Part shown: piece by piece, positions 766 through 36,200 of the stretch
Position numbering within the stretch: position 1 is the first letter of the stretch
Layout: each line of letters opens with the position of its first letter
Source: Bacteroidales bacterium UBA4772
Lineage (GTDB): Bacteria > Bacteroidota > Bacteroidia > Bacteroidales > VadinHA17
Assembly (NCBI GenBank): GCA_002403305.1
Contig: DHHM01000016.1
Coordinates: forward strand, 58,482 to 122,481
DNA: 64,000 nt
Direction: 5' to 3'
The notes under the pieces: generated by a model
Seen by the model: the letters and a program-made list of their open reading frames with translations, nothing else
Databases searched by the model: none
Told to the model about the DNA's origin: nothing
Translations under genes and position numbers: made by a program

Positions 766-773
766 TATTTTTG
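766..773 (+). promoter_or_regulatory. candidate -7 promoter box TATTTTTG
   Basis: Matches TAnnTTTG, 41 nt upstream of the response-regulator ATG at 815. Confidence 0.4.
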
Positions 774-814
774 TGATGAGTTCGGAACATTAACCCCGGG
801 TTCAATTATAAAAG

Positions 815-1219: not shown

Positions 1220-1322
1220 GGTTCAGTCCACAGTCGGCAGTCGGCAGTCGGCAGTCCACAGTCGGCAGTCGGCAGTCGGCAGTCTGACAATAGCGACTGA
1301 GGACTGAAGACTGAAGACTGGC
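1214..1322. repeat. heptanucleotide microsatellite hairpin: gactgag-gtt-(CAGTCNN)x9-acaatagc-(GACTGNN)x4
   Basis: Nine direct CAGTCGG/CAGTCCA/CAGTCTG heptads (1224-1286) are followed by four inverted GACTGAG/GACTGAA heptads (1295-1322). The structure fills the whole gap between convergent stop codons at 1217-1219 and 1322-1324. Confidence 0.9.
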
Positions 1323-4528: not shown

Positions 4529-4635
4529 AACTCTCTCTTTTCCATTTGCCGGTAATACCGCACGAAAATAATAAGATTTTGGAGTGGCGCGGTGGATATC
4601 AGCCATTTTTGGTATTTTTGAAGAAACCGCCCTGC

Positions 4636-21285: not shown

Positions 21286-22035
21286 GTGATGGAAAACGAA
21301 ACAAACAAACCAATTAAAAATCCTGAAACCTCAAGCAGGCTTATCATCGGGATACTCCTCATCGTCGCAGGAATGGTGCTTATCCTCAAGAAAACAACTG
21401 TACTGCCCGGGCCTCTCGACGATTTTATTGATGACGTTATCTTCAGCTGGCAGATGCTGCTGATAGTCATCGGTGTAATAACACTTGTGGGCTCTGACAA
21501 CAAGACTCCGGGCATCGTACTGATATCCGTAGGAGGCTTCTTCCTGATACCTGAGCTGTTCACCGATTTCTTCAGATCCTTTAATTTCTTCTGGCCAGCC
21601 CTCTTCATAGTTGTGGGCATTGTGCTTCTCATTAACTCCAAAAGGCTCGCAAAAACCGTGAGTTACAACAGCGCCAGCACCAATAAGGCCGATGTGATAG
21701 ACATCGTCAATATCTTCAGCGGGGCGGAACGGCAGCTCATCACTGATAATTTCAAGGGCGGAAAAATAACCTCCATCTTCGGCGGCGGAGAGGTTGACCT
21801 TACGAGATCGTCCCTGGCTCCGGGCGACAATGCGATTGAAATTACCTGTATCTTTGGGGGCACAACGGTCATCGTGCCCGACAGCTGGAATGTTATAATA
21901 GATGTGACTCCAATACTGGGAGGCTTTTCAGACAGCAGAAAACTACGGGGCGATGAGATGAGAGACAACACCAGAAGCCTTACTTTGAGAGGCACCGTGA
22001 TATTCGGAGGGGGCGAGATCAAAAGCTACAAATAG
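21286..22035 (+). CDS. LiaF-like (cell-wall-active antibiotic response, DUF2154-like) membrane protein
   Basis: N-terminal TM helices. The C-terminal beta-rich IFGGGEVDLTRSSL...ITCIFGGTTVIVPDSWNV...GTVIFGGGEI repeats resemble the LiaF C-domain as I recall it. Confidence 0.55.
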   Translation: MMENETNKPIKNPETSSRLIIGILLIVAGMVLILKKTTVLPGPLDDFIDDVIFSWQMLLIVIGVITLVGSDNKTPGIVLISVGGFFLIPELFTDFFRSFNFFWPALFIVVGIVLLINSKRLAKTVSYNSASTNKADVIDIVNIFSGAERQLITDNFKGGKITSIFGGGEVDLTRSSLAPGDNAIEITCIFGGTTVIVPDSWNVIIDVTPILGGFSDSRKLRGDEMRDNTRSLTLRGTVIFGGGEIKSYK

Positions 22036-22038
22036 CAT

Positions 22039-23097
22039 ATGAGGCATCCGGTACTGGAGAACAGAACAAGGTTACTGACCTGGTGGCTGGTCTGGCTGAC
22101 ACTTGCAGCCTGCCAGTCACTCCTCATTCATTATGCCTACGGCAGTACAATGAATGTGGCCCTGCTCGACGGAACTGTGTCGATGTTGCTATACGGCTTA
22201 CTTGGCCTGGCGATATGGTTTCCGGTGAGATACATCCTGAGAGATGACAGTGAAGCCTATACTGCAATCTTTAACATCGCCCTGACAGGGACGGCCACAA
22301 TCTTTGCATGGCTCTTCATCCCAAGGTTCCTGGTGAGGGCGATGGTGACCGAGAAGGTGGATTACATGATCTTCTGGCATTCGGTACTGGTCTTCAGGCT
22401 TACGGCCGGCATACTCATCTTTTTTGTGATCATCCTTGTCTACTATCTCTTTCTCAGCGCCGGCAGGCTGGCGGAAAAGGCGAAGCGGCAGGCACAACTG
22501 GAGGCGCAGGTACGCAACGGTGAGCTGATGATGCTGCGCGCACAGATAAACCCCCATTTCCTCTTCAACAGCCTCAACTCCGTCAGTTCGCTCACCGTTA
22601 CCGACCCCCTCAAGGCCAGGGAGATGATAGTCAAGCTCTCTGATTTCATGAGATACTCGCTCTCCTCCCGGAATGATCAGCCGGTTACGCTTCAGAATGA
22701 GCTGGAAAGCCTGAGGCTCTATCTGCAGATCGAGAAGGTTAGGTTCGGTGAACGGCTCATGATAGAGGAGGATATAAGTCCCGAATGCCTCACGGCAATT
22801 CTCCCTGGGATGCTTCTTCAGCCTCTCTATGAAAACGCCATCAAGCACGGGGTGTACGAGTCTACCGAAGAGATCATCATAAAGACCACAGCAAGGCTGG
22901 AGGATGATCTTGTAGTAATTACAATAACAAACAATATCGACAGGGAATCAGTTGTGACACGGAGGGGGGCAGGCATAGGACTGAAGAATGTCAGCAGCAG
23001 GCTGGAACTCTTCTTCGGAGAGAAGGCAGGACTGAAAATCAACCTCTCAGACGACATGTTTACTGCGGAGGTGAGGTTTCCCTGCCGGAAAACATGA
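22039..23097 (+). CDS. sensor histidine kinase, LytS/YehU type
   Basis: Multi-TM N-terminus, the INPHFLFNSLNSVSSL His_kinase motif, and a C-terminal GAGIGLKNV ATPase region. Confidence 0.88.
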   Translation: MRHPVLENRTRLLTWWLVWLTLAACQSLLIHYAYGSTMNVALLDGTVSMLLYGLLGLAIWFPVRYILRDDSEAYTAIFNIALTGTATIFAWLFIPRFLVRAMVTEKVDYMIFWHSVLVFRLTAGILIFFVIILVYYLFLSAGRLAEKAKRQAQLEAQVRNGELMMLRAQINPHFLFNSLNSVSSLTVTDPLKAREMIVKLSDFMRYSLSSRNDQPVTLQNELESLRLYLQIEKVRFGERLMIEEDISPECLTAILPGMLLQPLYENAIKHGVYESTEEIIIKTTARLEDDLVVITITNNIDRESVVTRRGAGIGLKNVSSRLELFFGEKAGLKINLSDDMFTAEVRFPCRKT

Positions 23098-23112
23098 AAA
23101 TATTTTTTCGAG

Positions 23113-23865
23113 ATGCAAAAAATAAGAGCACTTATCATTGAAGATGAAGCACCGGCACGCGAGCTGATAAAGTTTATGCTTAAAGATCATCCTGAGATAG
23201 AGATTGCGGGAGAGTGCGGCGACGGGTTCTGCGGGGCCAGGGAGATGAAGGAGAAACATCCTGACCTTATCTTCCTCGACATACAGATGCCCAAGCTGAC
23301 AGGCTTCGAGCTGCTGGAGGTTATCGATGAAAAGCCCGAGGTGATCTTCACAACTGCCTTCGACCAGTATGCCATCAGGGCCTTCGAACTCAATGCAGTC
23401 GATTACCTGCTCAAGCCATTCTCGAAGGAGCGCTTTGATGATGCGCTGGAAAAGGCCGTCAGCCGCCTAAACAAGCAGGAGAGGGAGACGGAGAAGATAG
23501 AGAAGCTCGTGACCGCCGTCTCTGAGAGCGAGGGTCAACTGACAAGGATAGTATTCAGGAAGGGTGCCGGGATAAAGATCATCCCGCTCAACAATGTCTC
23601 CCACCTTGCTGCGGAGGATGATTACGTGATGATATATCATACCGAAGGCAAGGCGCTGAAGCCCAAGACCATGAAGTATTACGAGGAGCATCTGCCACCG
23701 TCACTGTTCCTGAGAGTGCACCGTTCGTTCATGGTCAATGTGGAGTACATAACACGACTCGAACCCTACAGCAAGGATAACTACGTGGCCATACTCAAAT
23801 CGGGAGAAAAGATCCCGGTGAGCCGTGCCGGGTATAAGATGCTGAGGGAAAAACTTAACTTTTAA
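23113..23865 (+). CDS. LytTR-family DNA-binding response regulator
   Basis: REC domain (ALIIEDE...FLDIQMP...KP) plus a C-terminal LytTR-like domain (FLRVHRSFMVNVEYI). Confidence 0.92.
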   Translation: MQKIRALIIEDEAPARELIKFMLKDHPEIEIAGECGDGFCGAREMKEKHPDLIFLDIQMPKLTGFELLEVIDEKPEVIFTTAFDQYAIRAFELNAVDYLLKPFSKERFDDALEKAVSRLNKQERETEKIEKLVTAVSESEGQLTRIVFRKGAGIKIIPLNNVSHLAAEDDYVMIYHTEGKALKPKTMKYYEEHLPPSLFLRVHRSFMVNVEYITRLEPYSKDNYVAILKSGEKIPVSRAGYKMLREKLNF

Positions 23866-24176
23866 TCTCTCTCCTTCAGCCTGTTGCAACGGGGCGTCCT
23901 GCGGGTGAAACCACCGCCGGCACGATAACGTTTGAATATATAGCGGGGTACGGGGTCATAACCGTGGGTGCCGCCGGGCCTGCACCGCAGGATACGGTCA
24001 GCAGCAAGCAGCGTTCCTGCCAGCGGACCGTGCATGGTCAGGGCATCAATAGCATACTGCGAACAGGTAGGCACATGACGGCATGAGGAGGGAGTCCAGG
24101 GAGAGATTACCCACCTGTATATCCATACCGGTATAAGCAGTAAAAAAGAGAATATCTTTGCAGGTGTCTTTAACAT
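23862..24176 (-). CDS. yidD: membrane protein insertion efficiency factor YidD
   Basis: YRWVISPWTPSSCRHVPTCSQYAIDAL...HGYDPVP signature. Start at MLKTPAK (24176). Confidence 0.85.
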   Translation of the reverse strand: MLKTPAKIFSFLLLIPVWIYRWVISPWTPSSCRHVPTCSQYAIDALTMHGPLAGTLLAADRILRCRPGGTHGYDPVPRYIFKRYRAGGGFTRRTPRCNRLKERD

Positions 24177-24284
24177 CGCCCTCAAAGATAATCTGAATGG
24201 TCATGACAAAATGACCTCTTTTCAGAACTTATAGGGAATGGCAGATGTTTTGATAATAAATTGACGAATTAAACTGAAGGATAT

Positions 24285-24992
24285 ATGAGCGAGTCGATGT
24301 TTTTGCACAACGGGACCTACTGGATCATCTTTATAGTCTTCATGCTGCTGAGCTGGATAGTCAGCAACAGGCTCAAGTCGAAGTTCAGAAAATATTCCAG
24401 GATGCCGATAGGCAGCGGCCTGACCGGGCGCGACGTGGCTGAAAGGATGCTGCGCGACAGCGGTGTTACCGACGTCACCATACACAGCGTGCAGGGGGAA
24501 CTCTCTGACCATTACAATCCGCTGAAGAAGACCATCAACCTGAGTCGTGAGGTCTATTCCAATGCCAGCATTGCATCAGCTGCAGTGGCAGCTCACGAGA
24601 CCGGCCACGCACTGCAGCATGCGCAGTCATATGCCTGGCTGAATATGAGGTCGAAGCTTGCGCCGGCGGTGAGCTTTGCCTCCAACTGGATACAGTGGGT
24701 GCTCATTGCCGGATTGGTGCTTATCAACTCGCGACCTGAGATACTGCTGGTTGGCATCGGGCTGTTCGCCCTCACCACCATCTTCAGCCTCATCACCCTC
24801 CCTGTGGAGATTAACGCCTCAAAGCGTGCACTGGCATGGCTGTCCAACGCCGGGATCACCCAGCGCGAGACTCACGCCAGGGCTGAGGATGCCCTGAGAT
24901 GGGCGGCATATACATACGTCATCGCAGCCCTGGGGTCCCTGGCGACACTTATCTACTATATAATGATATTCATGGGAGTACGCGACAGGTAG
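24285..24992 (+). CDS. membrane zinc metallopeptidase (YugP-like, Zn_peptidase_2)
   Basis: AAHETGHALQH HExxH motif with flanking TM helices. 235 aa. Confidence 0.85.
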   Translation: MSESMFLHNGTYWIIFIVFMLLSWIVSNRLKSKFRKYSRMPIGSGLTGRDVAERMLRDSGVTDVTIHSVQGELSDHYNPLKKTINLSREVYSNASIASAAVAAHETGHALQHAQSYAWLNMRSKLAPAVSFASNWIQWVLIAGLVLINSRPEILLVGIGLFALTTIFSLITLPVEINASKRALAWLSNAGITQRETHARAEDALRWAAYTYVIAALGSLATLIYYIMIFMGVRDR

Positions 24993-25004: not shown

Positions 25005-25739
25005 CTATCTCCCGTCCACGTAGAGGAAGCTGGTACGCTTGACCAGGTATCTCACAACAGCCCAGAAGATGCCGGCTGCCACCAGCAGCGTAACGTACAG
25101 CGGCTCCATGTAAACCCTCCCTGTGACTGCAATATTGCGGACCGTATCGAGTATGGCAAAGACGATGAAGAGATTGGCCACGCTGTTGTGCTCGCGCTTG
25201 AGAACATTCCTGAAAGAGAATGGAAGTGCAGGCTTTTTGTAATGTTTCAGAGAGGGTATAACCGCTTTAACCCTGAAGGCCCAGATGTCATATGTCTCTC
25301 CGAACTTGCGGCGCAGATATTGCTCCTCGGCAAATATTATCCGTTCATAGTAGAGCCAGAAGGCCAGGATAAAAATAATGAGGCACCATACTGACCTCAG
25401 GAACATAACCGGTCCCAGCCACATCAGGAAGTTGCCGAGGTAAAGAGGGTTACGTACTATGGAATAGATGCCCGTTGTATTAAGTTCATCGGCCAGCTGG
25501 TCTATTACATTGCGCCCGGAGGTGTTGCGGGGTACATACCCCACTGTAAATGACCTGACCAGTTCACCTGCGACTGATACCAGGATGCAGATTATCTCCC
25601 AGGTGTAGTTGAAATAGATGACACTGCGGTTTGCTATGAAGAGCCAGATGATTGCCGGAACAAGAATCACCACCGGCAGCCAGCTCCTGCGTCTGAACAA
25701 CCAGTTACCTGATTTTTCAAGTTCATGGACAAGTGACAT
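25005..25739 (-). CDS. isoprenylcysteine carboxyl methyltransferase (ICMT/PEMT-like) family membrane methyltransferase
   Basis: Polytopic protein with SIVRNPLYLGNFLMWLG typical of the family. Start chosen at MSLVHELEK (25739) rather than 25880. Confidence 0.7.
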   Translation of the reverse strand: MSLVHELEKSGNWLFRRRSWLPVVILVPAIIWLFIANRSVIYFNYTWEIICILVSVAGELVRSFTVGYVPRNTSGRNVIDQLADELNTTGIYSIVRNPLYLGNFLMWLGPVMFLRSVWCLIIFILAFWLYYERIIFAEEQYLRRKFGETYDIWAFRVKAVIPSLKHYKKPALPFSFRNVLKREHNSVANLFIVFAILDTVRNIAVTGRVYMEPLYVTLLVAAGIFWAVVRYLVKRTSFLYVDGR

Positions 25740-25887
25740 ACTTACGGAGTTACTCCGTAAAAGTATGAAAAATTCATCATATAATAATTTACTCCATTTG
25801 TATGAAAGCCTGTCCCGGTTTATGGGAGAACCTCCATGTATCAGATTATTATTTACTTGTATTTGTGTGTGATAACACATGGAGGTT

Positions 25888-27117
25888 TCAGAAACTATAC
25901 CTGATCCTTAAGAAGCCAAGATTAAGCTTCGTCTCTGCGGAGGCCAGACGCATGTCAAAATGTTGCCAGAGTAATGAGAAATCGACATTCTCAGCCAGTG
26001 AAACATCCACTGAAGGGCCGGCGTACCATCCATCCATGTCAGGGTACCACATGGCTGAAAGTGATATACTGAGAAGGGGCATCGGCGCCCATGTCACCTG
26101 TCCTACGGCGCTGAATTCCGAGAAGGCAAGGTCTCTGGCCGTCAGGCCCCCCTTATAAAGCACGGTGAAACTGTCGAGTGATAGCGGGCGGTTTGAGTAC
26201 ATCAGCTGCACAATGGCGGTCAGCCTGTCAGAGAAGACCCTGTCAACGCCGGCGGTGGCAATCACGGTGCTCCCTTCATGCTCTGATCCGTCAAAAGGGG
26301 AAAAGAGTGTTGCCTCACCCCTGACGGAAAAGGGCCCGACGGCTCCTGACCATCCGGTGCCGGCGGTGAATAACTCCTCATCGGTCTCTCCGGCAAGAAA
26401 CTGGAGGTCGGTGTTCAGCAGGCTGAAGCGGAAGAGAGCTGCGGCGGTGAACCGGCCCTGGCTGTTGATCTTGACGGCAGCCTCGGCAGCTGACGATGGG
26501 CCGGTGGAATATACCAGCCTGACGGCGTCACTGCCCGGACGCTCAACATAGTCGAAATCAAAAAATGAGTAGGTGTTGAAGATGTCATTGGGGTTCCATA
26601 CCAGCGACTGGCTCCAGTTGATGCGCTGGCGGCCGGCGGTGATCTGCAGCCTGCCCAGCGTGAAGTCAGCGTATGCCCTGTCGATCATCGAATTCAGGAC
26701 ATAGGAGTTGCCGTCGGATATGTTCCATGAAAGGTCAATCCATCCGTCGTCGGTTGCCAGTCCTGACACATAACCGGGATCGAGCGCAATCATGTCGCCG
26801 GTGACAAACCTGTTCCTGATCTCTAAAGCAAAAGTGAACCTACTTCCTGCCCAGGCTTTGAAGTTTAGCCTGTTATGAAGCATGCTGCTGTTGATCCAGG
26901 TTTCTGCAGGCTTTTCGAACATGGCAGTATGGAGCCATGAGGCATACCCCCCGGCAGTGAGGCTGACCATCTTCTCTTTCTCTTCCGGAGGATCCGTGAT
27001 GACGCCGTTCATCTTCAGCGTATCACTCTTAGCAACGCCGGGGTCGATGCCGGTAAGGGCGACAGACTGCAGCATTGCGGCAAACATCATAACTGCCGGA
27101 AGGAGTGTTCGCATCAT
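25888..27117 (-). CDS. predicted outer-membrane beta-barrel protein, last gene of the ABC/LolA_like cluster
   Basis: Signal peptide MMRTLLPAVMMFAAMLQSVA. Alternating beta-strand pattern. C-terminal ...LGFLRIRYSF with a terminal aromatic residue. 4-nt overlap with the ATPase gene. Confidence 0.6.
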   Translation of the reverse strand: MMRTLLPAVMMFAAMLQSVALTGIDPGVAKSDTLKMNGVITDPPEEKEKMVSLTAGGYASWLHTAMFEKPAETWINSSMLHNRLNFKAWAGSRFTFALEIRNRFVTGDMIALDPGYVSGLATDDGWIDLSWNISDGNSYVLNSMIDRAYADFTLGRLQITAGRQRINWSQSLVWNPNDIFNTYSFFDFDYVERPGSDAVRLVYSTGPSSAAEAAVKINSQGRFTAAALFRFSLLNTDLQFLAGETDEELFTAGTGWSGAVGPFSVRGEATLFSPFDGSEHEGSTVIATAGVDRVFSDRLTAIVQLMYSNRPLSLDSFTVLYKGGLTARDLAFSEFSAVGQVTWAPMPLLSISLSAMWYPDMDGWYAGPSVDVSLAENVDFSLLWQHFDMRLASAETKLNLGFLRIRYSF

Positions 27118-27809
27118 GAAGTATGATTTGTTCTTTCGTCTGACACAACCTTCCCGTCCTCAAGGGTGATGACCCTGCGGGCCCTCTTCACAACCCGTGC
27201 ATCATGTGTCGAGAAGATAAAAGTCATCTCCTCCCCGCGGTTCAGCTTCTCCATGATGTCAAGAAGGGTCTCGGCCGATTTGGTGTCGAGGTTGGCTGTG
27301 GGCTCGTCGGCCAGGATAAACTGTGGCCGCGGCGCCAGGGCGCGGGCCACGGCAACCCTCTGCTGCTGTCCGCCTGAGAGCTGCGCAGGACGACTGCTGT
27401 GGCGGTCAGAGAGGCCTACGGCTTCCAGCAGCTCCCCGGTGCGTGCCATCCGCTTCTCCTTCGGCCATTTCTGGAGGCTCATGATAAACCCCACATTCTC
27501 TGAAGCCGTGAGAACGGGGATGAGATTGTACGACTGGAAGACGAAGCCCACATGCTCCATACGGAAATCTATCAGCTCCGAGGGCTTCAGTTCCGAGAGC
27601 CTGTGGCCCGCCACGATGATCTCCCCGGCGGTAGGCTGGTCAAGCCCCCCGATGAGGTTCAGGAGGGTGGTCTTGCCTGAGCCCGACGGACCCACTATCA
27701 CTGCAAAATCGCCCTTTTCAAAACTGAGCGTGACGCCGTTGACGGCCTTCACCTCAACTTCTGTATCATGATAGGTCTTGAAGACATCATTGATTTCAAC
27801 TACTTTCAT
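27114..27809 (-). CDS. ABC transporter ATP-binding protein (LolD/MacB-type)
   Basis: Walker A GPSGSGKTT, signature LSGGQQQRVAVARAL, Walker B ILADEPT. Confidence 0.93.
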   Translation of the reverse strand: MKVVEINDVFKTYHDTEVEVKAVNGVTLSFEKGDFAVIVGPSGSGKTTLLNLIGGLDQPTAGEIIVAGHRLSELKPSELIDFRMEHVGFVFQSYNLIPVLTASENVGFIMSLQKWPKEKRMARTGELLEAVGLSDRHSSRPAQLSGGQQQRVAVARALAPRPQFILADEPTANLDTKSAETLLDIMEKLNRGEEMTFIFSTHDARVVKRARRVITLEDGKVVSDERTNHTS

Positions 27810-27827
27810 TGTATTGCGTTTTTCTGG

Positions 27828-29255
27828 TTATTCTCCTCTTAATGCTTCAACAGGGTTTAGCTGCAACGCTTTCCTGGCGGGATAGATGGCTGCAACGATC
27901 CCGGTGATCACGATCATTACAGTCAGCATGATAAAGAAATCAGCCCCGATGGTGGGATAGAGATGGGCTGAGTATCCGAATGCCTCAAGGCCCTCCGAGT
28001 ACTTCACCAGGTTGATGCCGGTATGATTGGTAATGGCTATCACAATGGCACTTACTGCCATTCCCGCAAAACCTCCGACTATCGAAAGGAATATAGATTC
28101 AAGCATGATCATGCTGAATACACGGCGACGGTTCATGCCTATGGCTGAGAGCATGCCCAGCTCACGTGTGCGTTCCAGCACCGCCATCAGCATGGTGTTT
28201 ACTATTCCGAAGGCCAGGGCTGCCAGGATTAGCACCATGAAGATGCCATATATCTGGTTTACGTAATCGGCTATCATGGCCAGGTCAGTCTGTATCTGCT
28301 TCCAGCTCATCACCTCCAGTCCGGGGAGCGCTTCCTTTACGGATGCGCTGGCTTTGTCAGTCAGGTCATCATCCTCCAGGCGTGCAATGATGCGGTGGTA
28401 CTGCCCCTCTTCCATCCCTGTGAGGCGGAGCAGTTCATCATGCGGCACAAATACCGAAAAGGCCTCGAAAAAGTCGTTGTTCGTGCGGAAGATGCCGCTG
28501 ATACGGAAGGCAGCCCCTGTCTGTGTGCCGTTTGCATCAAGGAAGGTGAGGATGACCTTTGATCCCTCTCGGTATGACCAGGCTGCCTCCTTGATCCTCA
28601 TCCCGTACAGCTTCCCCTCCTTCTCCGTGAGCAATCCGGAACAGGCCTCCGACAGTTTCTTTTCCGCGGTGAACCTCTGGTTTTCGAGGGGTCTGAGTTT
28701 CTCAACAACGGCTGCAGGAACATCCTCAGCTTCAAGGGCGGTAAAGGATTCTTCCGTGAGGATATACCGGATTATGTAGAGCTCTTTTGCCAGCTTCTCG
28801 CCGATGAAGGCGCTGTTGAGCCTGGTGTCGGTTCCAAAGTAGCTCCCCGTTCCGGGTATGAGACGTTCCTTAAGGGTAAACATCTGCTGCTCCTTTTCAA
28901 CGTCTATGCCCGTGATCTCCACGCCCGCGCTCCCGGCGGAGGTTGAGGCTATGCCCCGTACAATTATCCGTTCGGTGATATGAGTCACTCCGGGTGTCTC
29001 TTCGAGCACCGATACAACCTTTTCAGGCTCGGCTATCACATTGGCTATGTCACTGCTGCCCCTGAATCCGGGGTTGTTTACCTGGATATGAGACAGCTCC
29101 TCGTTGACAGCGGCATCAATGCGCTGAACAATAGAGCTGTTGATGGCAGCCATGGCAAAGACGCCCGCAAAGACGCCCACGGTCACGGCAGCTATCACGG
29201 TCAGGCTCCTGGTCCTGTTCCGCCAGACATTCTTCCATGCAATGGATGTTATCAT
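27828..29255 (-). CDS. FtsX/MacB-type ABC permease (4 TM with a large periplasmic domain)
   Basis: N-terminal WKNVWRNRTRSLTVIAAV TM1, a ~270-aa extracytoplasmic insert, and three C-terminal TM helices of an FtsX domain. Confidence 0.88.
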   Translation of the reverse strand: MITSIAWKNVWRNRTRSLTVIAAVTVGVFAGVFAMAAINSSIVQRIDAAVNEELSHIQVNNPGFRGSSDIANVIAEPEKVVSVLEETPGVTHITERIIVRGIASTSAGSAGVEITGIDVEKEQQMFTLKERLIPGTGSYFGTDTRLNSAFIGEKLAKELYIIRYILTEESFTALEAEDVPAAVVEKLRPLENQRFTAEKKLSEACSGLLTEKEGKLYGMRIKEAAWSYREGSKVILTFLDANGTQTGAAFRISGIFRTNNDFFEAFSVFVPHDELLRLTGMEEGQYHRIIARLEDDDLTDKASASVKEALPGLEVMSWKQIQTDLAMIADYVNQIYGIFMVLILAALAFGIVNTMLMAVLERTRELGMLSAIGMNRRRVFSMIMLESIFLSIVGGFAGMAVSAIVIAITNHTGINLVKYSEGLEAFGYSAHLYPTIGADFFIMLTVMIVITGIVAAIYPARKALQLNPVEALRGE

Positions 29256-29267
29256 TTTAGTCTTCTG

Positions 29268-30683
29268 TTAGGCTCTGATAGCATTTATTATGTTCAATTT
29301 GAATATCCTCCGCACACTGAATGTGATGGCTATGAGCAGTATCAGCAGCACAATCGCTGCCTGCCACAGGTAGTAGGTGTCCGGGAGATGCATGGGCATC
29401 ACCGCTTCAAAGCCGTACTCCTCGTACATCTTTGCCAGCTCCCCGGTGAAGCGCAGGGGCCTTGCATAGCCATAGTAGACAATGGGCAGTGATGCTGCAA
29501 TACCTGCCAACACACCCAGCAATCCGATGAACAGCATCTCCATGCTTACTATGCCGGCCAGCTTACGCTTCTGCATCCCTATAGAGACCAGCATGCCGAA
29601 CTCCCTCCTCCGTTCAGCCATCATCATAAGTACTGTACCGGATACGCCAAAGGCTATCACCAGGTAAAGGATGCCTATCATGATTGCCCCGCTCTTGTTG
29701 TCAGCCTCCATCTGGTTCAGCAGGAGGGCATTCATCTCCTTCCAGTTGCGTATTACCAGCCCGTCATTGCAGGAGGCGGACAGCCGCTGTTGCGTTTGCA
29801 GAAGCTCCCTGTCATCTGTATCGCTTATACTTATTATGGCCGAGGTGACCATTTCGGGTGCAGCATAGAGATACTGTGCATCTGCCAGGGTGATGTAAAC
29901 AAATGCATTGTCAATCTCGGGGTTTGGCATGCTCACTATACCCTTTATCACGAAGAGTCCGGCTGCGGATACCCCGTGATAGCCCTGTCCCATCACCACC
30001 AGGGTGTCTCCAACGTCTGCGCTGAGATAACGCGACAGTCCGTATCCTATAACCGCCCGGCCGGAATCTGCCGAAGTGAGGTAACGGTTGTCGAGTGATG
30101 CATACTTCCTGAAGAGAGGCATCACTGCTGCTGAATCATCATCGCCTATGCCGAGGTCAGAGATGAGGCTCTTTTCATCGGTCCAGGCCTCACCGGAAAA
30201 TACATCGACCAGCTTAGCGGTGCGGGACGGCAGGTTTTCTCCTTTAAGAGCTTCGGTTGCATCAGGAGTAAGGCGGTATTTTATGAGACGGTTCTTTATG
30301 TTCAGCGTCTTCTGCTCATTGTCGGGATCCATGCCGATCACCATCACACCCCGGGTGCGACTCCCGGCAGCTGCCAGCGCGAACGATTCCAGCTTTGGAA
30401 TAACCCCCGTTACATTGGGGTCTGCCTCTATTATGTCAGTCAGCGACTGCTCAGGAACAAACCCGTTGTCAAGATTTGATTCATCAAGGTAGTCACTGTG
30501 CTGAAGCTGCAGGTAACCGGAGTATGATTCGATGACATCCCTGTACATCTTTTCGTATGTACCCAGCTGAAACGACCTCATCACCAGTGCAAAGAAGACT
30601 GCAAAGAATACCGAGGCTGCCGTTATGAGGGTCCTCCTTTTGTTTCGCCATAGATTTCTCCAGGCAAGCTGATAGTTCTTCAT
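29268..30683 (-). CDS. FtsX/MacB-type ABC permease, paralogue of the preceding gene
   Basis: WRNLWRNKRRTLITAASV TM1, a large periplasmic insert, and a C-terminal FtsX domain. Preceded by cassette copy B. Confidence 0.88.
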   Translation of the reverse strand: MKNYQLAWRNLWRNKRRTLITAASVFFAVFFALVMRSFQLGTYEKMYRDVIESYSGYLQLQHSDYLDESNLDNGFVPEQSLTDIIEADPNVTGVIPKLESFALAAAGSRTRGVMVIGMDPDNEQKTLNIKNRLIKYRLTPDATEALKGENLPSRTAKLVDVFSGEAWTDEKSLISDLGIGDDDSAAVMPLFRKYASLDNRYLTSADSGRAVIGYGLSRYLSADVGDTLVVMGQGYHGVSAAGLFVIKGIVSMPNPEIDNAFVYITLADAQYLYAAPEMVTSAIISISDTDDRELLQTQQRLSASCNDGLVIRNWKEMNALLLNQMEADNKSGAIMIGILYLVIAFGVSGTVLMMMAERRREFGMLVSIGMQKRKLAGIVSMEMLFIGLLGVLAGIAASLPIVYYGYARPLRFTGELAKMYEEYGFEAVMPMHLPDTYYLWQAAIVLLILLIAITFSVRRIFKLNIINAIRA

Positions 30684-30776
30684 TCGATTATCTTATTATT
30701 TCATTGGTCGAAAGAAACTTACATGTAGTAAAAACAATCATGTCCAATTGTGAGTTTCTGTCCATGTAAGTTTCAT
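30684..30776 (-). repeat. palindromic cassette copy B (93 nt), intercistronic
   Basis: Minus-strand reading: ATGAAACTTACATGGACAGAAACTCACAATTGGACATGATTGTTTTTACTACATGTAAGTTTCTTTCGACCAATGAAATAATAAGATAATCGA, then ATG at 30683. Confidence 0.88.
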
Positions 30777-30798
30777 GCCAGTGGATATTTGATGGACA

Positions 30799-31569
30799 CT
30801 ATCTGATGGTCTTCATATTCTGCTGTGAGAAGAAGCTCTCCTCAATCTTTACATTGAATTTTACCTCTGTTATATTAAGGATGGTCTTGCGGCCCGGCTC
30901 CTCGGCGGGGATCAGTTCAATGGTGGTGGGTATAAACCTTCCGTCCATTGTCCTGAGATCACTGCCCCGCTCCGTTCTGACCAGGTAGCCGTCCTCATCA
31001 TAGAGCTCGGCTTTCAGGACAATAAACTCATTTTTATCAACCCACCACAGCTGGTGACTCCAGAGAACGTCGGCATCATCCTTTGCCGTCAGCCTGATCT
31101 TGTGGCACATGCGGCCGTCGATCTCCTCCTCTCCCTCGAAAGTGTGGGTGTAGTCTTCCACCACGGAGGACTCCCTGAGGATATCATCATTGGTGTAGTC
31201 TGACCCCATCCAGCCCTGCGACATCATTGAGGGCGGCAGCTTGATAAGCCTGTTGATGGCGGGATTCCAGCTCCACATCTCCGTGCCCCGTTTGAGAAAT
31301 GTCTGTCCCTTTTCGCGCGCCGGCGCGGTGATTAGCGTGAGGGCATAGTCATCTTCCAGGGCCCACGATTTGAATTCTATTGTGCGCTGCCATGAGGAGC
31401 GCACGATGGTCATGCTCATGACGCTGTAGCCCGAGAGCTCACCGTTGAATTTCTCGTCTGTTTTTTTGATTATTTCTTTGGCGCTCAGCTGCTGCGCGGT
31501 GGCCGGCCCGCTTGCCGGCAGCAGGAGGAGCATTGCGATGCCTGTGATTATCTGACCTGTTAGTTTCAT
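30799..31569 (-). CDS. LolA_like periplasmic protein (outer membrane lipoprotein-sorting protein family)
   Basis: Signal peptide MKLTGQIITGIAMLLLLPASGPATAQ. IKLPPSMMSQGWMGSDYTNDDILRESS matches my recollection of the LolA_like family. Confidence 0.8.
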   Translation of the reverse strand: MKLTGQIITGIAMLLLLPASGPATAQQLSAKEIIKKTDEKFNGELSGYSVMSMTIVRSSWQRTIEFKSWALEDDYALTLITAPAREKGQTFLKRGTEMWSWNPAINRLIKLPPSMMSQGWMGSDYTNDDILRESSVVEDYTHTFEGEEEIDGRMCHKIRLTAKDDADVLWSHQLWWVDKNEFIVLKAELYDEDGYLVRTERGSDLRTMDGRFIPTTIELIPAEEPGRKTILNITEVKFNVKIEESFFSQQNMKTIR

Positions 31570-31665
31570 TAGATTATTTGTTTATTATTATATTGGACTA
31601 ATGGAACTTGCATGAAGTTTACAGTCATTTCCCCGGGAGGAGTTGCTGCTCATACATGGTTTCAT
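31570..31665 (-). repeat. palindromic cassette copy C (96 nt, left arm degenerate)
   Basis: Minus-strand reading: ATGAAACCATGTATGAGCAGCAACTCCTCCCGGGGAAATGACTGTAAACTTCATGCAAGTTCCATTAGTCCAATATAATAATAAACAAATAATCTA, then ATG at 31569. Its head ATG overlaps the stop of the upstream ORF (ATGA). Confidence 0.8.
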
Positions 31666-32057
31666 CTGTATCTTTTTATCAGTGCGTCTGTTACCTTTTC
31701 ATAATATTCACCCTGATACTGTTCTTCAGAGAATATGGAAGTGATGGCAAACCCCTTGATCGCATTTATAAACATGAGCAGATCGGTCATCGGGTTATAG
31801 TCCGGACCGGCGTTCTCTCCCTTCTTCCGGAAGTATTCCACCAGGAGGCTCATCATGCTTTCGGTGTATTCCCTGAAAGGTCTTCCTGATATTGATAAGG
31901 ACCCTGACTCCTCCCCGAATAGTTTCTCATAGACTCCGGGCTGTATCATTATTCTGAAGAGCAGTTTCCGGAACTGCCTCTTCTCATGAAGCACTTTAAA
32001 TACTTTCCGGATTTGCAGAAAGTGTTGAAAATAAAATATATGTAGTAATATTAACAT
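31662..32057 (-). pseudogene. ORF of unknown function, possibly the C-terminal remnant of a TetR-like regulator (no HTH present)
   Basis: 131-aa helical ORF in the position where such clusters often carry a regulator. The frame is closed by in-frame stops at 32070-32072 and 32088-32090, so no DNA-binding N-terminus can be encoded. The family assignment is a guess. Confidence 0.3.
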
Positions 32058-32143
32058 TATTGCATCTGGTCACTGATGAATTCTGTTTCAATTAGCGATT
32101 TCAGTATTGCTGAAGGTTTGATTGGCAGAAAGAATTACCAGGA

Positions 32144-33346
32144 TCAGGGTGTAAGCAAAAAATCGACCAGATTTTGCCATTTTATACCATTTCGCACGTT
32201 GCCATAATGCCTGTCCATGGACAGTACAAGTTTGGGATAATTGTCCCGCACCGTTTCAAGAGCACCAAATTCTCTTTCAATAACAGCCTCATCTGAGAGC
32301 ATATAGGCAACTTGTATGTAAGTTTTGGTGTTACCTTTTACTGCAATAAAATCGATCTCACGTTCGTATAGCTTGCCAATATGAACTTTAAACCCTCGTG
32401 CAACCAGTTCAAGGTAAACAATGTTTTCAAGCTTCCCGGATATGTCCTGAAACTTATCACCCAGCAAGGAATACATAAATCCGATATCACCAAGATAGTA
32501 TTTGTCGTAAAGCTCCAGCTGTCTCTTCCCTTTTATATCGAACCTATTCACCTTGTGTGCCATGTAAGCCTGAGAAAGCCAATGCAGATAATTCTGCACC
32601 GTATCAGCAGAAAATTTTAGGTGTTGGGATTTAAAATAGTTGCTTATACCTTTGGCAGTAGTTATATTGCCAATATTATCAGCAATATAGGCGGTTATCC
32701 TTTCAAGCATAGCTACATCACGTACCTGGTTCCGGGACACAACATCCTTTAGAAGAATGGTGCTGTATATGGCGCTTATATACTGACTGATAACTTCATC
32801 AGCAAATTCCATTCTATGAATCCCCGGGAAACCGCCATATTTCATGAAAAGGGCAAACTCATCATCCCTTTCAGCCCCTGATTTGTTTCTGAATGTAAGA
32901 AATTCACTGAATACAAGAGTATTCATCTTAAATTCAATATACCTCCCTGTCAAAAGTGTTGCCAGGTCAGATGCCAGTAAATCCGCATCGGACCCTGTGA
33001 TGTATATATCTGCAATCTCATCCGCAAAAAAGCCGGCAATTGCCTTCTCCCATTGTTCAATTTCCTGAACCTCATCAACAAATAGGTACTTCCTGGCATT
33101 GTTTTTAATTAAATTTTTGGTTACATAGACATGAAGATCCATATAGGTCGTGATGAAGTCAAATTCCAATGAATCTTTGTTGATATACAGTATATCAGCA
33201 GGGTCTACTCCTTCAGTTTCCAGCTCATTAATCAGCAGTTTCAGAAAGGTGCTTTTGCCACATCTTCTTATCCCGGTGATTACTTTTATTACAGGTTTAT
33301 CGATGAATGGTGCTATTCGATCAAGATACATGTCTCTCCTAATCAT
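32144..33346 (-). CDS. AAA+ ATPase (AAA_14 N-domain with DUF4143-type C-domain)
   Basis: Walker A ITGIRRCGKSTFLK and Walker B LFVDEVQEI. Start at MIRRDMYLDRIAP (33346); the longer ORF to 33595 is a non-homologous extension. The gene is visibly AT-richer than its flanks. Confidence 0.85.
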   Translation of the reverse strand: MIRRDMYLDRIAPFIDKPVIKVITGIRRCGKSTFLKLLINELETEGVDPADILYINKDSLEFDFITTYMDLHVYVTKNLIKNNARKYLFVDEVQEIEQWEKAIAGFFADEIADIYITGSDADLLASDLATLLTGRYIEFKMNTLVFSEFLTFRNKSGAERDDEFALFMKYGGFPGIHRMEFADEVISQYISAIYSTILLKDVVSRNQVRDVAMLERITAYIADNIGNITTAKGISNYFKSQHLKFSADTVQNYLHWLSQAYMAHKVNRFDIKGKRQLELYDKYYLGDIGFMYSLLGDKFQDISGKLENIVYLELVARGFKVHIGKLYEREIDFIAVKGNTKTYIQVAYMLSDEAVIEREFGALETVRDNYPKLVLSMDRHYGNVRNGIKWQNLVDFLLTP

Positions 33347-33604
33347 TTTCGAGTATATTACGATTATTACAAATATATGCAAATATTTCGACTGTATTCG
33401 TTTTATTGAAGTTTTTCTATGATTGAGGAGAGTCTGTTCACGGCAGGTGCGGTGGAGGTAACGCTGTCCCATGCCGTTCCGCGGGCTCCCGGCAAGTACT
33501 CCTCGCAGCAGATGACGTGGGTTAAGAGATCTTGCGTTGATATGTATCCATATTAAATAGAGTACAAGTACAGTTATTAAAAGTATTGTCAGCAACCCTG
33601 ACCT

Positions 33605-33635
33605 AAAAAAAATCCGGGAGAGATCACCTCCCGGA
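33605..33635 (-). terminator. rho-independent terminator after the BlaR1-like gene
   Basis: The minus strand reads TCCGGGAGGTGATCTCTCCCGGA (an 8-bp GC-rich stem) followed by TTTTTTTT. Confidence 0.7.
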
Positions 33636-33659
33636 CTTTTAAATTGAGACCGTACCGGA

Positions 33660-35744
33660 TTATAATCCTTCCTGAATTTTCTCGCCAGAGGATAGTGCGA
33701 ATGAAATCGGGACAGAATACCATACGTTGACAGGCTTACCGCCCTGCATTCCTGGTGTCCAGTCGGGAAGAAGACTCATTACCCTTACTGCTTCGGCATC
33801 AAGCAGGGGGTCAATTCCTCTGACAACTGTAACATCTTCGACTGAACCATCAGAAGTGACCACGAACCTCAGAATGACTTTTCCCTGTATACCCCGTTCT
33901 TTAGCTTCAGGCGGATACCTGACATTTTCATTTATGAATTTGAACAGGGCTTCATCACCACCCGGATATACCGGCATTTTTTCAACTACAACAAATATTT
34001 CCCCTCCTCCCACCTTGTCAGGCAGCGAGAATTTAGCAGTGATTTCGGAGGTAAAGGGTTCATTCATGCCTGGATTCTTCGGAGGTTCCCACAGGGGAGA
34101 GGTTTTGATCACTTCTGCCAGGGCATTGGCAAGAAGAGGATTGGTTGTTCCTTTGGGTTTTATATTGCTTACAGAACCGTCCGGCTCAACCGTAAAGCTG
34201 ACATGGGCCCAGCCCTCTATTCCGGCTGCAGCAGCCTCAGGAGGATATTTGGTTCGGCTTATCACCCAGTCGGTAAATGTAGTATGAAAGCTGCCCCCAA
34301 AGGTCGGAAAATCGTCCTGGGACTTCCTGCGAAGGGGAACGGTCATGCCCAGCTCTTTGGCTTTTTCCCTGGAATATATTTCCATCACGCCTGCAGCTCC
34401 CTTCTCTCCATACTTTTCCTTGGCTTCACTAAAGGTTAGGGCTTTTGCTATACCCAGGTCGTTCCCCATCTTTTCCATAATTTCAGTAAGGGTCTGATCA
34501 GTGATGACGCCGTCAACAACCAGCAGCTGCTTCGGTTTAGGTTTATCCGTAGCATCAGGCTTCACAGTGGCAGGGTCAACGTAATTGGGGTCAGGTTGCA
34601 TCCTGACTATCATCTCCTTGTCTGTAACAGGATTAAGTGGCAGGTACTTATAGCCTTTATAAGTAAAAACCAGTATCACATTTTCGGGAATGCCCCTGAA
34701 CTCAAAGCGGCCTGAAGCATCGGTACTCACTGAAAGGGAGGTGCCGGATACGTTGACATTTACTCCGGGAAACGGTGTTCCGTCTTCACGGTAAACGACT
34801 CCCCTTACAGTATTCTGGATCAGGGGTGCCGGCTGGCTGATAGTTAACTCAGATGTACCTGTGGTTTCCGCATAAACATATCTGGGAGATGCAAATGCAA
34901 ACAACATTCCTGCCATAAGTGGCAGTACAAGAAGCAGTTTAAGCTTCCTGAATGGAGAATAAGTTTTCTTTTTCATCATTTCAAACCTGTTTGTGTTAAA
35001 CGAAAAATTGAATGAATTCGAGAGACTGATCAGCCTGGCGCTGAAGACCTGGTTGAGGAGAGTAGCCCTGTATCCTGCCGGGTCAGATGTCTGCTGCAGC
35101 GCCACCTCATCGGCAAGATGCTCATGATTCTGCCTGACAAGCGCCGAACAGATCCATGCAAAGGGATTCATCCATTGCACCAGGCTAATCACTTCAACAA
35201 GCAGGAGATCAAACCAGTGCTTCTGTCTGAGGTGCACCATCTCATGGTTCAGTATCTCCCTGACCTCACGCCCGCTCAGTGAAGGATTGATAAAAACGTA
35301 ATTGAAAAATGAAAAGGCGGAGGTATATTTTTCTGATCTGACAAGCAAGGCATCTCCTTCCCTGTGTACCGGCCCGCTTCTTACAGCGCGGTACACCGTG
35401 AAGAGGTACTGCAGCGTCCGCCCCAGCAGGAAGACTAATCCTGCAGCATAGAATATCATGAACCATTTCAGCGGATCTTTCTCCGCCACAATCTCCGCCG
35501 CCGCTGCCGGTGATGAAGGCAAAACCGGGGTCATCCCCTGCGTCTCCTGTATCAGCGGAGCAGGAAGCTCAACCCTGTAATGCAGAGTTACCAGCGGAAG
35601 GATCAGTGAGAGAGCCACTCCTGCCAGGAGGTAGATCCGCTTAAGCATGAAAAACCTCTCCTTCTGCAGAAAGAGAAGGTATACCAGCGTAAAACCTGCC
35701 AGCCATGCGGCCGATTTCAGCAGGTAGAATGCAATCTGTTCCAT
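33660..35744 (-). CDS. BlaR1/MecR1-type M56 peptidase sensor fused to a CarboxypepD_reg-like domain and two TonB C-terminal-like domains
   Basis: N-terminal TM region with HEMVHLRQKHWFD (M56 HExxH). Central VRGVVYREDGTPFPGVNVNVSG. Two C-terminal YPPEA...G.V.V.F.V..DG modules. Confidence 0.85.
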   Translation of the reverse strand: MEQIAFYLLKSAAWLAGFTLVYLLFLQKERFFMLKRIYLLAGVALSLILPLVTLHYRVELPAPLIQETQGMTPVLPSSPAAAAEIVAEKDPLKWFMIFYAAGLVFLLGRTLQYLFTVYRAVRSGPVHREGDALLVRSEKYTSAFSFFNYVFINPSLSGREVREILNHEMVHLRQKHWFDLLLVEVISLVQWMNPFAWICSALVRQNHEHLADEVALQQTSDPAGYRATLLNQVFSARLISLSNSFNFSFNTNRFEMMKKKTYSPFRKLKLLLVLPLMAGMLFAFASPRYVYAETTGTSELTISQPAPLIQNTVRGVVYREDGTPFPGVNVNVSGTSLSVSTDASGRFEFRGIPENVILVFTYKGYKYLPLNPVTDKEMIVRMQPDPNYVDPATVKPDATDKPKPKQLLVVDGVITDQTLTEIMEKMGNDLGIAKALTFSEAKEKYGEKGAAGVMEIYSREKAKELGMTVPLRRKSQDDFPTFGGSFHTTFTDWVISRTKYPPEAAAAGIEGWAHVSFTVEPDGSVSNIKPKGTTNPLLANALAEVIKTSPLWEPPKNPGMNEPFTSEITAKFSLPDKVGGGEIFVVVEKMPVYPGGDEALFKFINENVRYPPEAKERGIQGKVILRFVVTSDGSVEDVTVVRGIDPLLDAEAVRVMSLLPDWTPGMQGGKPVNVWYSVPISFALSSGEKIQEGL

Positions 35745-35756
35745 TTTTTATTCCTG

Positions 35757-36122
35757 TTAGTCATCGTCAAGCTCTTCCCGGGCCTCCTCGAGTATCCTGT
35801 CGAGGTCCTTTACTGAAAGATTCTTCTCCCTGGCAAAGAACGATGTCATTGCCGGGAAAGAATTGTTGAAGTACCCTTCGAGCAGCCCGAACAGCTGGTG
35901 CTTTGAATACTCCCGTTTCGAAACCAGGGGAAAATAGAGGAATACATTCGCATAAGCCCGGTGATCCACATAACCCTTCTTCTCAAGGACCTTCAGCACT
36001 GTTGAGATGGTGTTACGCGCCGGCTTCGGATCATCAAATTTTCCCCTGATATCCTTTACCACTCCCTCTTCCAGATCCCATAAAATCTGCATTATCTGCT
36101 CTTCAGCCTTAGTCAGTTGCAT
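35757..36122 (-). CDS. BlaI/MecI/CopY family transcriptional repressor
   Basis: MQLTKAEEQIMQILWDLEEGVVKDI winged-helix start (ATG at 36122). 12-nt gap to the BlaR1-like gene. Confidence 0.88.
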   Translation of the reverse strand: MQLTKAEEQIMQILWDLEEGVVKDIRGKFDDPKPARNTISTVLKVLEKKGYVDHRAYANVFLYFPLVSKREYSKHQLFGLLEGYFNNSFPAMTSFFAREKNLSVKDLDRILEEAREELDDD

Positions 36123-36200
36123 AAAATCTTTTTTAATTAATACCACAACAATGCCCGTTTCCGGACACTTCTTTTCAATCAATCCTTCAACACAAATATA

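Follow-up and report, generated by a model that had tools for sequence, protein, structure and literature searches.

We analysed a stretch of 64,000 nucleotides (nt) from Bacteroidales bacterium UBA4772 (assembly GCA_002403305.1, contig DHHM01000016.1, positions 58,482 to 122,481), hereafter the window, whose positions are counted from its first letter. The subject of this work is an operon of five tightly packed open reading frames (ORFs), all on the minus strand at 25888-31569, which begins with a LolA_like protein of 256 amino acids (aa; 30799-31569) and continues with two permeases, FtsX_A of 471 aa (29268-30683) and FtsX_B of 475 aa (27828-29255), an ATP-binding cassette (ABC) ATPase of 231 aa (27114-27809) and an outer-membrane barrel protein of 409 aa (25888-27117). 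The gaps between the genes are 115, 12 and 18 nt, and the barrel gene shares its first 4 nt with the end of the ATPase gene (27114-27117). The base composition of the operon is the same as that of the surrounding DNA, and we found no related transport genes elsewhere in the window, where 36-52 kb was scanned. A first-pass annotation, made from the letters and ORFs alone, had already described five co-directional genes here and had read them as an inner-membrane extractor, a periplasmic shuttle and an outer-membrane acceptor; the ORF list bears out all five of them in position and strand.

The first gene product matches the Pfam family PF17131 (LolA_like, named TP_0789-like in newer Pfam) with 188 bits (cut-off 30; E 1.7e-55) over positions 2-184 of the 184 of the model. 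Its sequence matches in PDB are 3buu, 9tp6, 4z48 and 3bk5, all of the LolA superfamily (E 1e-17 to 1e-13), and we infer a LolA-superfamily fold for this carrier. The protein starts with a hydrophobic signal-like segment, there is no Cys in residues 1-45 and there is a single Cys in its whole length. Given this segment and the Cys-free start, we predict a carrier or adaptor that is soluble in the periplasm, and not a lipoprotein. Against the model of the Bacteroidota LolA1 (NF053572) it reaches 19.8 bits where the cut-off is 100, thus it is not LolA proper. Furthermore, it has a weak match to DUF1329 (E 0.009), several of its close homologues have precomputed DUF1329 matches, and close homologues are annotated as 'outer membrane lipoprotein-sorting protein'.

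Regarding the permeases, FtsX_A and FtsX_B align as full-length paralogues with 22% identity (E 1e-33) and have four predicted transmembrane (TM) segments each, at about 17-38, 334-356, 384-406 and 440-461. The pair of paralogous four-TM permeases seen in the first pass therefore stands, the domain between TM1 and TM2 being of around 295 aa instead of the 270 aa or so estimated then. Pfam finds FtsX in both of them (E 1.8e-14 and 2.8e-17) and MacB_PCD in FtsX_A. Among solved structures, the nearest relatives of the two permeases are LolF, LolC and LolE, followed by MacB and YtrF; specifically, FtsX_A is nearest to LolF (E 2.5e-11) and LolE (7e-5), and FtsX_B to LolF, LolC and MacB. The lolCE model (TIGR02212) is also the top NCBIfam match of both, with partial alignments scoring 75 bits for FtsX_A and 103 bits for FtsX_B (cut-off 362).

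The ATPase, which had been called LolD/MacB-type, matches ABC_tran (E 1e-33) and is scored about equally by the LolD, MacB and DevA models of NCBIfam, in agreement with that name. It obtains 222 bits with LolD (TIGR02211, cut-off 307.75), 213 bits with the N-terminal part of MacB and 210 bits with DevA, the range being 200-222 when FtsE is included, and all these scores are below the cut-offs. Since four TM segments, a large periplasmic domain that separates TM1 from TM2 and a C-terminal FtsX domain are found together with an ATPase of the LolD/MacB/FtsE type, the permeases and the ATPase can be assigned by sequence to the type VII ABC (MacB/FtsX) superfamily, and FtsX_A and FtsX_B are presumed to be the partners of a heterodimer. 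Judged by these profile scores, the system is Lol-like in outline and is not a Lol system.

The last gene had been described as coding for a 409-aa protein which ends in RIRYSF and as overlapping the ATPase gene by 4 nt, and both details are correct. The protein has no sequence match in Pfam, NCBIfam or PDB, either as a single sequence or as a profile. Its structure was predicted with AlphaFold2 (AF2), first from 49 close homologues (pLDDT 76) and then from 81 sequences down to around 30% identity, which gave a pLDDT of 88.4 and a pTM of 0.81. In the AF2 model a signal peptide (around 1-20) and a disordered linker (21-44) are followed by 18 antiparallel strands between residues 52 and 408 and by a C-terminal Phe. 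The periplasmic turns have 2-5 residues and the long external loops are L2 (108-129), L3 (165-195) and L7 (309-334). The best Foldseek matches are the 18-stranded Campylobacter MOMP, ChiP of E. coli, Occ/OprD channels of Pseudomonas and Acinetobacter, and the alginate exporter AlgE, with TM-scores of 0.55-0.6, and among the 50 best matches there were no Omp85, Slam, LptD, TolC or FadL folds. With 18 strands and no periplasmic domains, the predicted protein also differs from what would be expected of the Omp85/BamA-TamA, LptD or Slam types (16 or 26 strands plus POTRA or other domains). On the strength of this model we can say confidently that the last gene codes for an 18-stranded outer-membrane barrel, as the acceptor role given to it in the first pass demanded.

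The hallmark motif of the barrel, GRQRINWSQ..VWNPNDIFNTYSFFDFDYVERPGSDA (residues 162-198), is located in loop L3, and the most conserved stretch of the whole family, GRQRINW..VWNPND.FN.YSFFDFDYEERPGSDA, falls within the same loop. The L3 loop of classical porins and of Occ channels folds into the lumen. The residues which do not vary even at 28% identity, most of them charged or polar, are R83, R101, R147, Q164, R165, N167, D178, D187, D197, D237, Q239 and E268, and in some alignments R103 and R163 are invariant as well. Because the L3 motif is conserved and the invariant residues are charged or polar, the modelled barrel has more the look of a specific channel or exit site than of a general porin.

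We also examined the relationship of this barrel with DUF1302 (PF06980). When distant members of the family were scanned individually against Pfam, 16 out of 45 matched DUF1302 at E <= 1, the best of them with 1.2e-5. The three matches which were shown individually had 15-19 bits, below the gathering score of 23.2, and they fell on the hallmark motif. The barrel of the window itself has no DUF1302 match at E <= 1.

The family to which this barrel belongs is a large one. A word-indexed search gave over 3,400 clusters at the level of 90% identity, an exhaustive search found at least 1,426 representatives at 50% identity (393 of them with E < 1e-30), and in a collection with one genome per species barrel relatives are encoded in at least 591 matched places. 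The named relatives come from metagenome-assembled genomes of Bacteroidales, from the cultured Mangrovivirga, a Flammeovirgaceae bacterium, Salinimicrobium flavum and Salegentibacter sediminis, and from metagenome-assembled genomes of Crocinitomicaceae and Cyclobacteriaceae; all of them are annotated as hypothetical proteins. No Bacteroides, Prevotella or Flavobacterium appeared among the named matches listed, and the distribution of the module looks accessory. These taxonomic statements, and those which follow, rest on record titles and source names.

In order to see which genes accompany the barrel, we compared 80 loci from the species genomes and 80 loci from metagenomes, the latter retrieved with a profile of distant barrels, and counted the gene order in those loci which had at least 4.6 kb of sequence upstream of the barrel. 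We found the co-directional order LolA_like, FtsX, FtsX, ATPase and barrel in 62 out of 63 loci from genomes and in 40 out of 41 from metagenomes (102/104 altogether), with barrels whose identity to ours goes from 72% down to 29%. One exception (L080) is a lone barrel, and the other (L098, a metagenome locus, at 436-8098) has the order LolA_like, FtsX, FtsX, ATPase, FtsX, FtsX and barrel, that is, a duplicated permease pair. Thus the operon is widely conserved in Bacteroidota, its five genes are co-inherited almost without exception and the grouping is far beyond chance. The combination of an 18-strand barrel with an adjacent LolA-superfamily gene, which is typical of DUF1302-type pairs, is present in these 102 loci as well, since the LolA_like gene is in the same operon. 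The flanks of the 160 loci contained no conserved biosynthetic, lipoprotein, membrane-fusion protein or TolC gene.

The same comparison showed a difference in permease length. The permeases of distant loci are shorter, of 404-405 aa, as in the locus of a cultured Mangrovivirga (L161). FtsX_A is orthologous to the first, 404-aa permease of that locus and is aligned with a gap of around 68 residues in the shorter protein, and FtsX_B has around 70 extra residues (roughly 136-205) in comparison with its 405-aa ortholog. This extension belongs to the Bacteroidales lineage and occupies an equivalent periplasmic site in both paralogues, around residues 136-205 in FtsX_A (about 30070-30280 in the window) and around residues 136-205 in FtsX_B (about 28640-28850); it was acquired either in parallel or by co-inheritance.

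The relatives also tell how the operon is regulated. A gene for a TetR-family protein of 210 aa lies immediately upstream of the LolA_like gene, sometimes overlapping it by 4 nt, in 47 of around 62 Bacteroidales loci and in around 15 distant loci; full-length proteins with TetR_N are found at this position in, for instance, loci L005 and L162. A -7 box of the Bacteroidetes type (TAnnTTTG) precedes the TetR gene in all the 44 loci inspected, and its 3' part runs into a palindrome of 20 bp with the consensus TTGACTGACCGTTCAATCAA, a second copy of which is often located just before the TetR start codon. If up to 4 mismatches are allowed, 46 of 47 Bacteroidales loci and 13 of 15 distant ones, including distant marine ones, have the palindrome upstream of TetR; it follows TAnnT directly, thus overlapping the -7 box, in 44/47 and 11/15 of the TetR loci respectively. 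Around 70 of the 77 palindrome matches in 1.8 Mb of fetched DNA fall in TetR upstream regions. The region lies within 130 nt upstream of the TetR start, e.g. at 2850-2945 in L005 and at 2740-2828 in L162. Such an arrangement is, as far as sequence can tell, that of a classical autoregulated repressor of the TetR family which is released by a ligand, and the palindrome is its putative operator. By analogy, a TetR repressor with a conserved operator would be the signature of ligand-induced efflux and not of housekeeping envelope biogenesis.

This bears on the possibility that the operon is a specialised Lol-type route, in which the ABC complex would extract particular lipoproteins, the LolA_like protein would chaperone them and the barrel would insert them or flip them to the surface. 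The architecture resembles that of LolCDE-LolA(-LolB) of E. coli and its LolF variants, with a heterodimer of paralogous four-TM FtsX permeases laid out as LolC/LolE, a separate ATPase and a soluble partner of the LolA superfamily, and it was seen above that LolF, LolC and LolE are the closest solved relatives of the permeases and that lolCE is their top NCBIfam match. Moreover, the export of lipoproteins to the surface is an unresolved matter in Bacteroidota, since F. johnsoniae without all its LolA/LolB homologues still displays a surface lipoprotein (PMC11885536), and an analogous cluster of Borrelia has been proposed to handle lipoproteins (PMC13078400). However, the scores are far below the cut-offs of LolC/E (75 and 103 against 362), LolD (222 against 308) and LolA (20 against 100), the carrier belongs to PF17131 and not to the LolA family, and the acceptor is predicted to be an 18-strand barrel of the porin/AlgE type and not the lipoprotein LolB. 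In addition, unlike the Lol genes, the operon is TetR-regulated in the relatives, with a conserved operator that would be unusual for envelope biogenesis, its spread looks accessory, and no lipoprotein gene is conserved in or beside the module. We therefore find lipoprotein delivery unsupported and consider this route unlikely; of the first-pass reading, the extractor, shuttle and acceptor architecture is strengthened by the 18-strand barrel and the co-inheritance, whereas the delivery of lipoproteins is not. Because biosynthetic genes are not linked to the operon and TetR control is, a function in efflux or tolerance, or the export of a common membrane lipid, is favoured over lipoprotein sorting.

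In the window, the regulator gene has been cut short. The first-pass annotation had remarked that the only upstream ORF has no regulator-type N-terminus, which is literally right, yet this ORF (31662-32057) is the C-terminal remnant of a recently truncated TetR gene. A tblastn search with the 210-aa TetR of L005 matched only with residues 93-210, at 32018-31665 in the window; what is left (31662-32018, minus strand) covers residues ~94-210, and the N-terminal helix-turn-helix domain, TetR_N, is gone. The closest relative, L162, has a barrel 92% identical to ours and around 90% nucleotide identity over 32012-25000 of the window. According to blastn against L162, L004 and L005, homology is interrupted between 33608 and 32012 (the latter being position 3111 of L162). 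Between these breakpoints, 887 bp of L162, containing the promoter, both operators and TetR codons 1-94, have been replaced in the window by 1,595 bp of low-GC DNA (32013-33607, minus strand; GC about 0.40, with 0.403 in 32001-34000). This segment carries an ORF (32144-33595) with the Pfam domains AAA_14 and DUF4143, whose start is probably at 33346 or 33331. Thus, the missing N-terminus of the regulator is explained by an insertion/replacement of 1.6 kb. The event is recent, because the TetR remnant is still around 90% identical to that of L162. We had also considered the remnant as a decaying pseudogene, given its 58-63% identity to L004, L005 and L015, and we dropped this idea because its identity to L162 is the same as in the rest of the operon.

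The palindrome TTGACTGACCGTTCAATCAA is absent from the whole 64-kb window, and a scan for promoters of the sigma-70 type and for terminators gave nothing useful within the operon. The sole exact -7 box on the minus strand between 25000 and 33700 is TATATTTG (33377-33370), which is located before the inserted gene. The operon of the window has probably lost its ligand control, so that its expression would be unregulated, and its transcription may come from read-through of the inserted gene.

In the same region we observed a direct repeat of 37 nt (78% identity) whose copies are just upstream of the LolA_like start (31582-31618) and of the FtsX_A start (30693-30729). A piece of 33 bp of this repeat has an inverted copy in the BlaR1-TetR intergenic region of L162 (2276-2308), so this may be a small repeated intergenic element.

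The literature search found no study that describes the present operon (a search for TP0789 yielded just a proteome list), and experiments have yet to characterise, in any organism, a system which joins a type VII ABC transporter to a LolA-like protein and a porin-type barrel. Nevertheless, several known clusters share part of its design. One group consists of the proteobacterial clusters of DUF1302, DUF1329, BNR and RND (HAE3-MMPL) genes, such as AmeABCD of Castellaniella defragrans, Sama_1588-1591 and PP_0765/0766, which also join an 18-strand barrel, a LolA-superfamily protein and an energised pump. DUF1302 is an 18-strand barrel with Occ and AlgE as Foldseek neighbours (TM-score around 0.55), the same ones that we obtained for the present barrel, and a complex of DUF1302 with DUF1329 has been predicted with an ipTM of 0.84 (PMC13499233). 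In Shewanella, Kangiella and Pseudomonas the genes of these clusters are cofit (bioRxiv 10.1101/072470), and the DUF1302/DUF1329 genes with RND of Castellaniella, AmeABCD, are associated with monoterpene efflux (PMC6394551). Hydrophobic compounds are what these clusters have been linked with (PMC6394551; bioRxiv 10.1101/2020.07.04.188060; bioRxiv 10.1101/072470). On the other hand, the engine here is a type VII ABC transporter instead of an RND/MMPL pump, a BNR propeller protein is missing, the barrel has around 385-410 aa instead of 540-600, and the regulator is a TetR instead of a LuxR or AraC protein. Marinobacter AupA/AupB had been considered as another DUF1302/DUF1329 pair and were discarded, because the source paper names neither family.

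A second group is formed by PG1178-PG1181 of P. gingivalis and the paralogous operons of Prevotella intermedia, with a TetR, an inner-membrane transporter, an 'outer membrane lipoprotein-sorting protein' plus a protein which is annotated as a porin or as hypothetical (PMC13096392, PMC10434189, PMC10470040, PMC11018363). In P. gingivalis the operon, a transport system described as uncharacterised, responds to iron/haem limitation with a 13- to 136-fold induction and is also induced by nitric oxide stress (PMC10434189, PMC10470040, PMC11018363, PMC13096392). Its transporter, however, is of the MMPL type and not FtsX/ABC, and the barrels are likened by annotation. Borrelia BBJ23-BBJ29 combine a MacB-like ABC transporter with a LolA-like protein and a barrel, and that they export a non-polar ligand has been proposed from computation only (PMC13078400); they differ in that their barrel is an Omp85, the permease is proposed to be a homodimer, there are extra chaperone-like genes and the cluster is plasmid-borne in spirochaetes. 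Finally, MacAB-TolC and DevBCA-HgdD share with the operon the FtsX/MacB-type permease, an ATPase of the same subfamily and a dedicated outer-membrane duct, but there is no HlyD protein or TolC-type duct in or near the operon, which has a LolA-like protein and a porin-type barrel instead. By analogy with these systems, we would describe the operon as the ABC-driven, porin-type-barrel version of a recurring design.

We think it somewhat better than an even chance that the operon codes for a ligand-induced, envelope-spanning exporter of hydrophobic or amphipathic cargo which is not a protein, be it a xenobiotic, a toxic metabolite or a membrane lipid. The FtsX heterodimer with two copies of the ATPase would work as a type VII ABC mechanotransmitter, as LolCDE or MacB do. 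This complex would take up its cargo in the periplasm or at the inner membrane, from the outer leaflet, and pass it to the soluble LolA_like protein, which would deliver it to the 18-stranded barrel or would stay docked on it. The in-pore loop L3, together with the conserved Arg, Asp and Glu residues, may provide the specific exit site, and the barrel model suggests an amphipathic cargo with an anionic head group. In the relatives, a ligand, either the cargo or a related compound, would release the autoregulated TetR repressor and so turn the operon on. It is from the parts and their analogues that we infer which way the transport goes, how the cargo is handed over and what kind of cargo it is.

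Some observations speak against such an exporter. The AF2 model and the alignments give the barrel a charged, polar interior, which is unexpected for a purely apolar cargo. Regulation is not uniform, as TetR was undetected in around 15 of the ~62 Bacteroidales loci and in roughly 60% of the distant loci. The homology of the carrier and the barrel to DUF1329 and DUF1302, which the sequence comparisons suggest, is sub-threshold in Pfam. Furthermore, the DUF1302/DUF1329 mutants of P. putida are defective on fatty esters, a phenotype which can also be read as uptake or processing (bioRxiv 10.1101/2020.07.04.188060).

The last of these points, together with the barrel model, would also fit the opposite direction of transport, in which the barrel would admit a hydrophobic nutrient or lipid, the LolA_like protein would carry it inward and the ABC complex would insert it in the inner membrane or pull it inward. 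The barrel is actually as close to the uptake channels Occ/OprD and ChiP as to the exporter AlgE, and in P. putida the mutants in DUF1302/DUF1329, BNR and RND genes show reduced fitness when Tween 20 or butyl stearate is the carbon source (bioRxiv 10.1101/2020.07.04.188060). However, no catabolic genes are conserved near the operon. The characterised type VII ABC systems (MacB, LolCDE, FtsEX) export, extract or transmit force, and we know of no importer among them; besides, ABC or RND pump operons which are repressed by TetR typically serve for efflux. An uptake or retrograde role is for these reasons improbable.

It could also be that the ABC complex moves no cargo at all and that ATP hydrolysis reshapes the LolA_like protein, which in turn would open or energise the barrel, in the manner of FtsEX, which acts so on its periplasmic partners. 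In the model, L3 is long, invariant and probably occludes the pore, which makes an externally triggered gate plausible, and the ~70 extra residues are at the same periplasmic site in both Bacteroidales permeases. The proteins of the LolA superfamily, though, are known as binders of lipids and lipoproteins and not as force transducers, and the permeases are nearer to the Lol-type extractors than to FtsX. We regard pure mechanotransmission as very unlikely, and turn from the ligand-induced exporter to the genes around it.

The gene that follows the operon codes for a 244-aa protein (25005-25739, minus strand), which had been reported as a methyltransferase of the ICMT family located 148 nt downstream. 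The distance is right, with the ATG at 25739, and the identification can be refined to LmtA-like (TIGR04571, LmtA_Leptospira in NCBIfam). The protein belongs to PEMT and ICMT in Pfam, has an ICMT/PEMT fold with 5 predicted TM segments and matches the Tribolium ICMT (PDB 5vg9, E 4e-9). Its alignment with the LmtA model is full-length, with 241 bits and E 1e-71, below the cut-off of 325. The gene is found up to 700 nt downstream of the barrel in 56 of 73 loci of the close (Bacteroidales) set, typically at around 40 nt, and in 1 of 51 loci of the distant set.

The spacer between the barrel and the methyltransferase is conserved too. After the barrel stop, the sequence ..TTTTCATACTTTT(G/A)C.. (the TTTTCATACTTTTG/A element) is present in nearly all the loci which bear the methyltransferase. 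A -7 box, TACTTTTA in the window (25765-25758) and TAcTTTTG in most relatives, is located around 20 nt before the ATG, and because this box is conserved in the spacer the methyltransferase appears to have a promoter of its own. Only in the window and in L002 and L013 is the box followed by a near-perfect palindrome, TTACGGAGT-A-ACTCCGTAA (25760-25742). In the window, box and palindrome together span 25742-25765 on the minus strand, directly before the ATG of the methyltransferase.

If this enzyme were functionally tied to the operon, the pair might remodel lipid A or the charge of the outer membrane: the LmtA-like protein would methylate the 1-phosphate of lipid A, or another anionic head group, and the exporter would move the product outward. 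Leptospira LmtA is a lipid A 1-phosphate O-methyltransferase with a multi-TM ICMT/PEMT fold, the match to its model covers the whole length, the gene follows the barrel in most of the Bacteroidales loci, and the barrel has conserved arginines, which would go well with a phosphate or carboxylate head group. Nevertheless, the enzyme differs from LmtA in its sub-cut-off score, it has its own promoter box and it is outside the ancient five-gene core, being absent from 50 of the 51 distant loci which have this core. Genes for YidD, a LytTR regulator and a histidine kinase are similarly conserved (41-46 loci), thus the adjacency may be inherited synteny. Lipopolysaccharide, moreover, is already served by the Lpt pathway. 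We consider such remodelling extremely improbable. The idea that the methyltransferase defines the cargo was downgraded for the same reasons (own promoter box, absence from 50/51 distant loci, a block of equally conserved unrelated neighbours), and on sequence grounds we treat the enzyme as a lineage-specific neighbour which is weak evidence on the cargo of the exporter.

The block in question is convergent, at 21286-24992, and comprises a LiaF-like protein, a histidine kinase (His_kinase, PF06580), a LytTR response regulator, YidD and Zn_peptidase_2. It is conserved in 37-46 of the related Bacteroidales loci analysed, and it is either inherited synteny or a functionally linked cell-envelope stress module. 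On the other side of the insertion, at 33660-36182, a BlaI-type repressor (Penicillinase_R) lies beside a 694-aa BlaR1-like M56 protein, which is fused to CarboxypepD_reg and two TonB_C domains, an unusual architecture for a sensor. At the insertion boundary, a hairpin terminator (33613-33635) closes the BlaR1-like gene. Farther away, two ORFs of 879 aa and 385 aa (43410-46049 and 39914-41071) have no Pfam match at E <= 1e-5; the former is located between a Peptidase_S51 gene and a gene with HATPase_c, a histidine-kinase-type ATPase.

Regarding the meaning of these results, the barrel family has no name, no Pfam model and no solved structure. The LolA-like carrier together with a DUF1302-like barrel would be a reusable module between periplasm and outer membrane, whose partners are RND/MMPL pumps in the case of Proteobacteria and P. 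gingivalis and an ABC engine here. Knowing the cargo would clarify how, with no TolC duct, hydrophobic compounds get through the watery periplasm and past the outer membrane. For the inducer, which is probably the cargo or a relative of it, the conserved TetR operator offers an experimental handle, and cultured carriers of the operon exist, such as Salinimicrobium flavum, Salegentibacter sediminis, Mangrovivirga sp. M17 and Flammeovirgaceae SG7u.111. There is also a small chance that the operon represents a new class of trans-envelope machine, in which an ABC extractor and a LolA-like protein feed or gate a barrel that places an endogenous amphipathic lipid or a lipoprotein on the cell surface. 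If that were true, it would be an ATP-powered route through the outer membrane and could explain some of the Lol-independent surface export that is so far unaccounted for in Bacteroidota.

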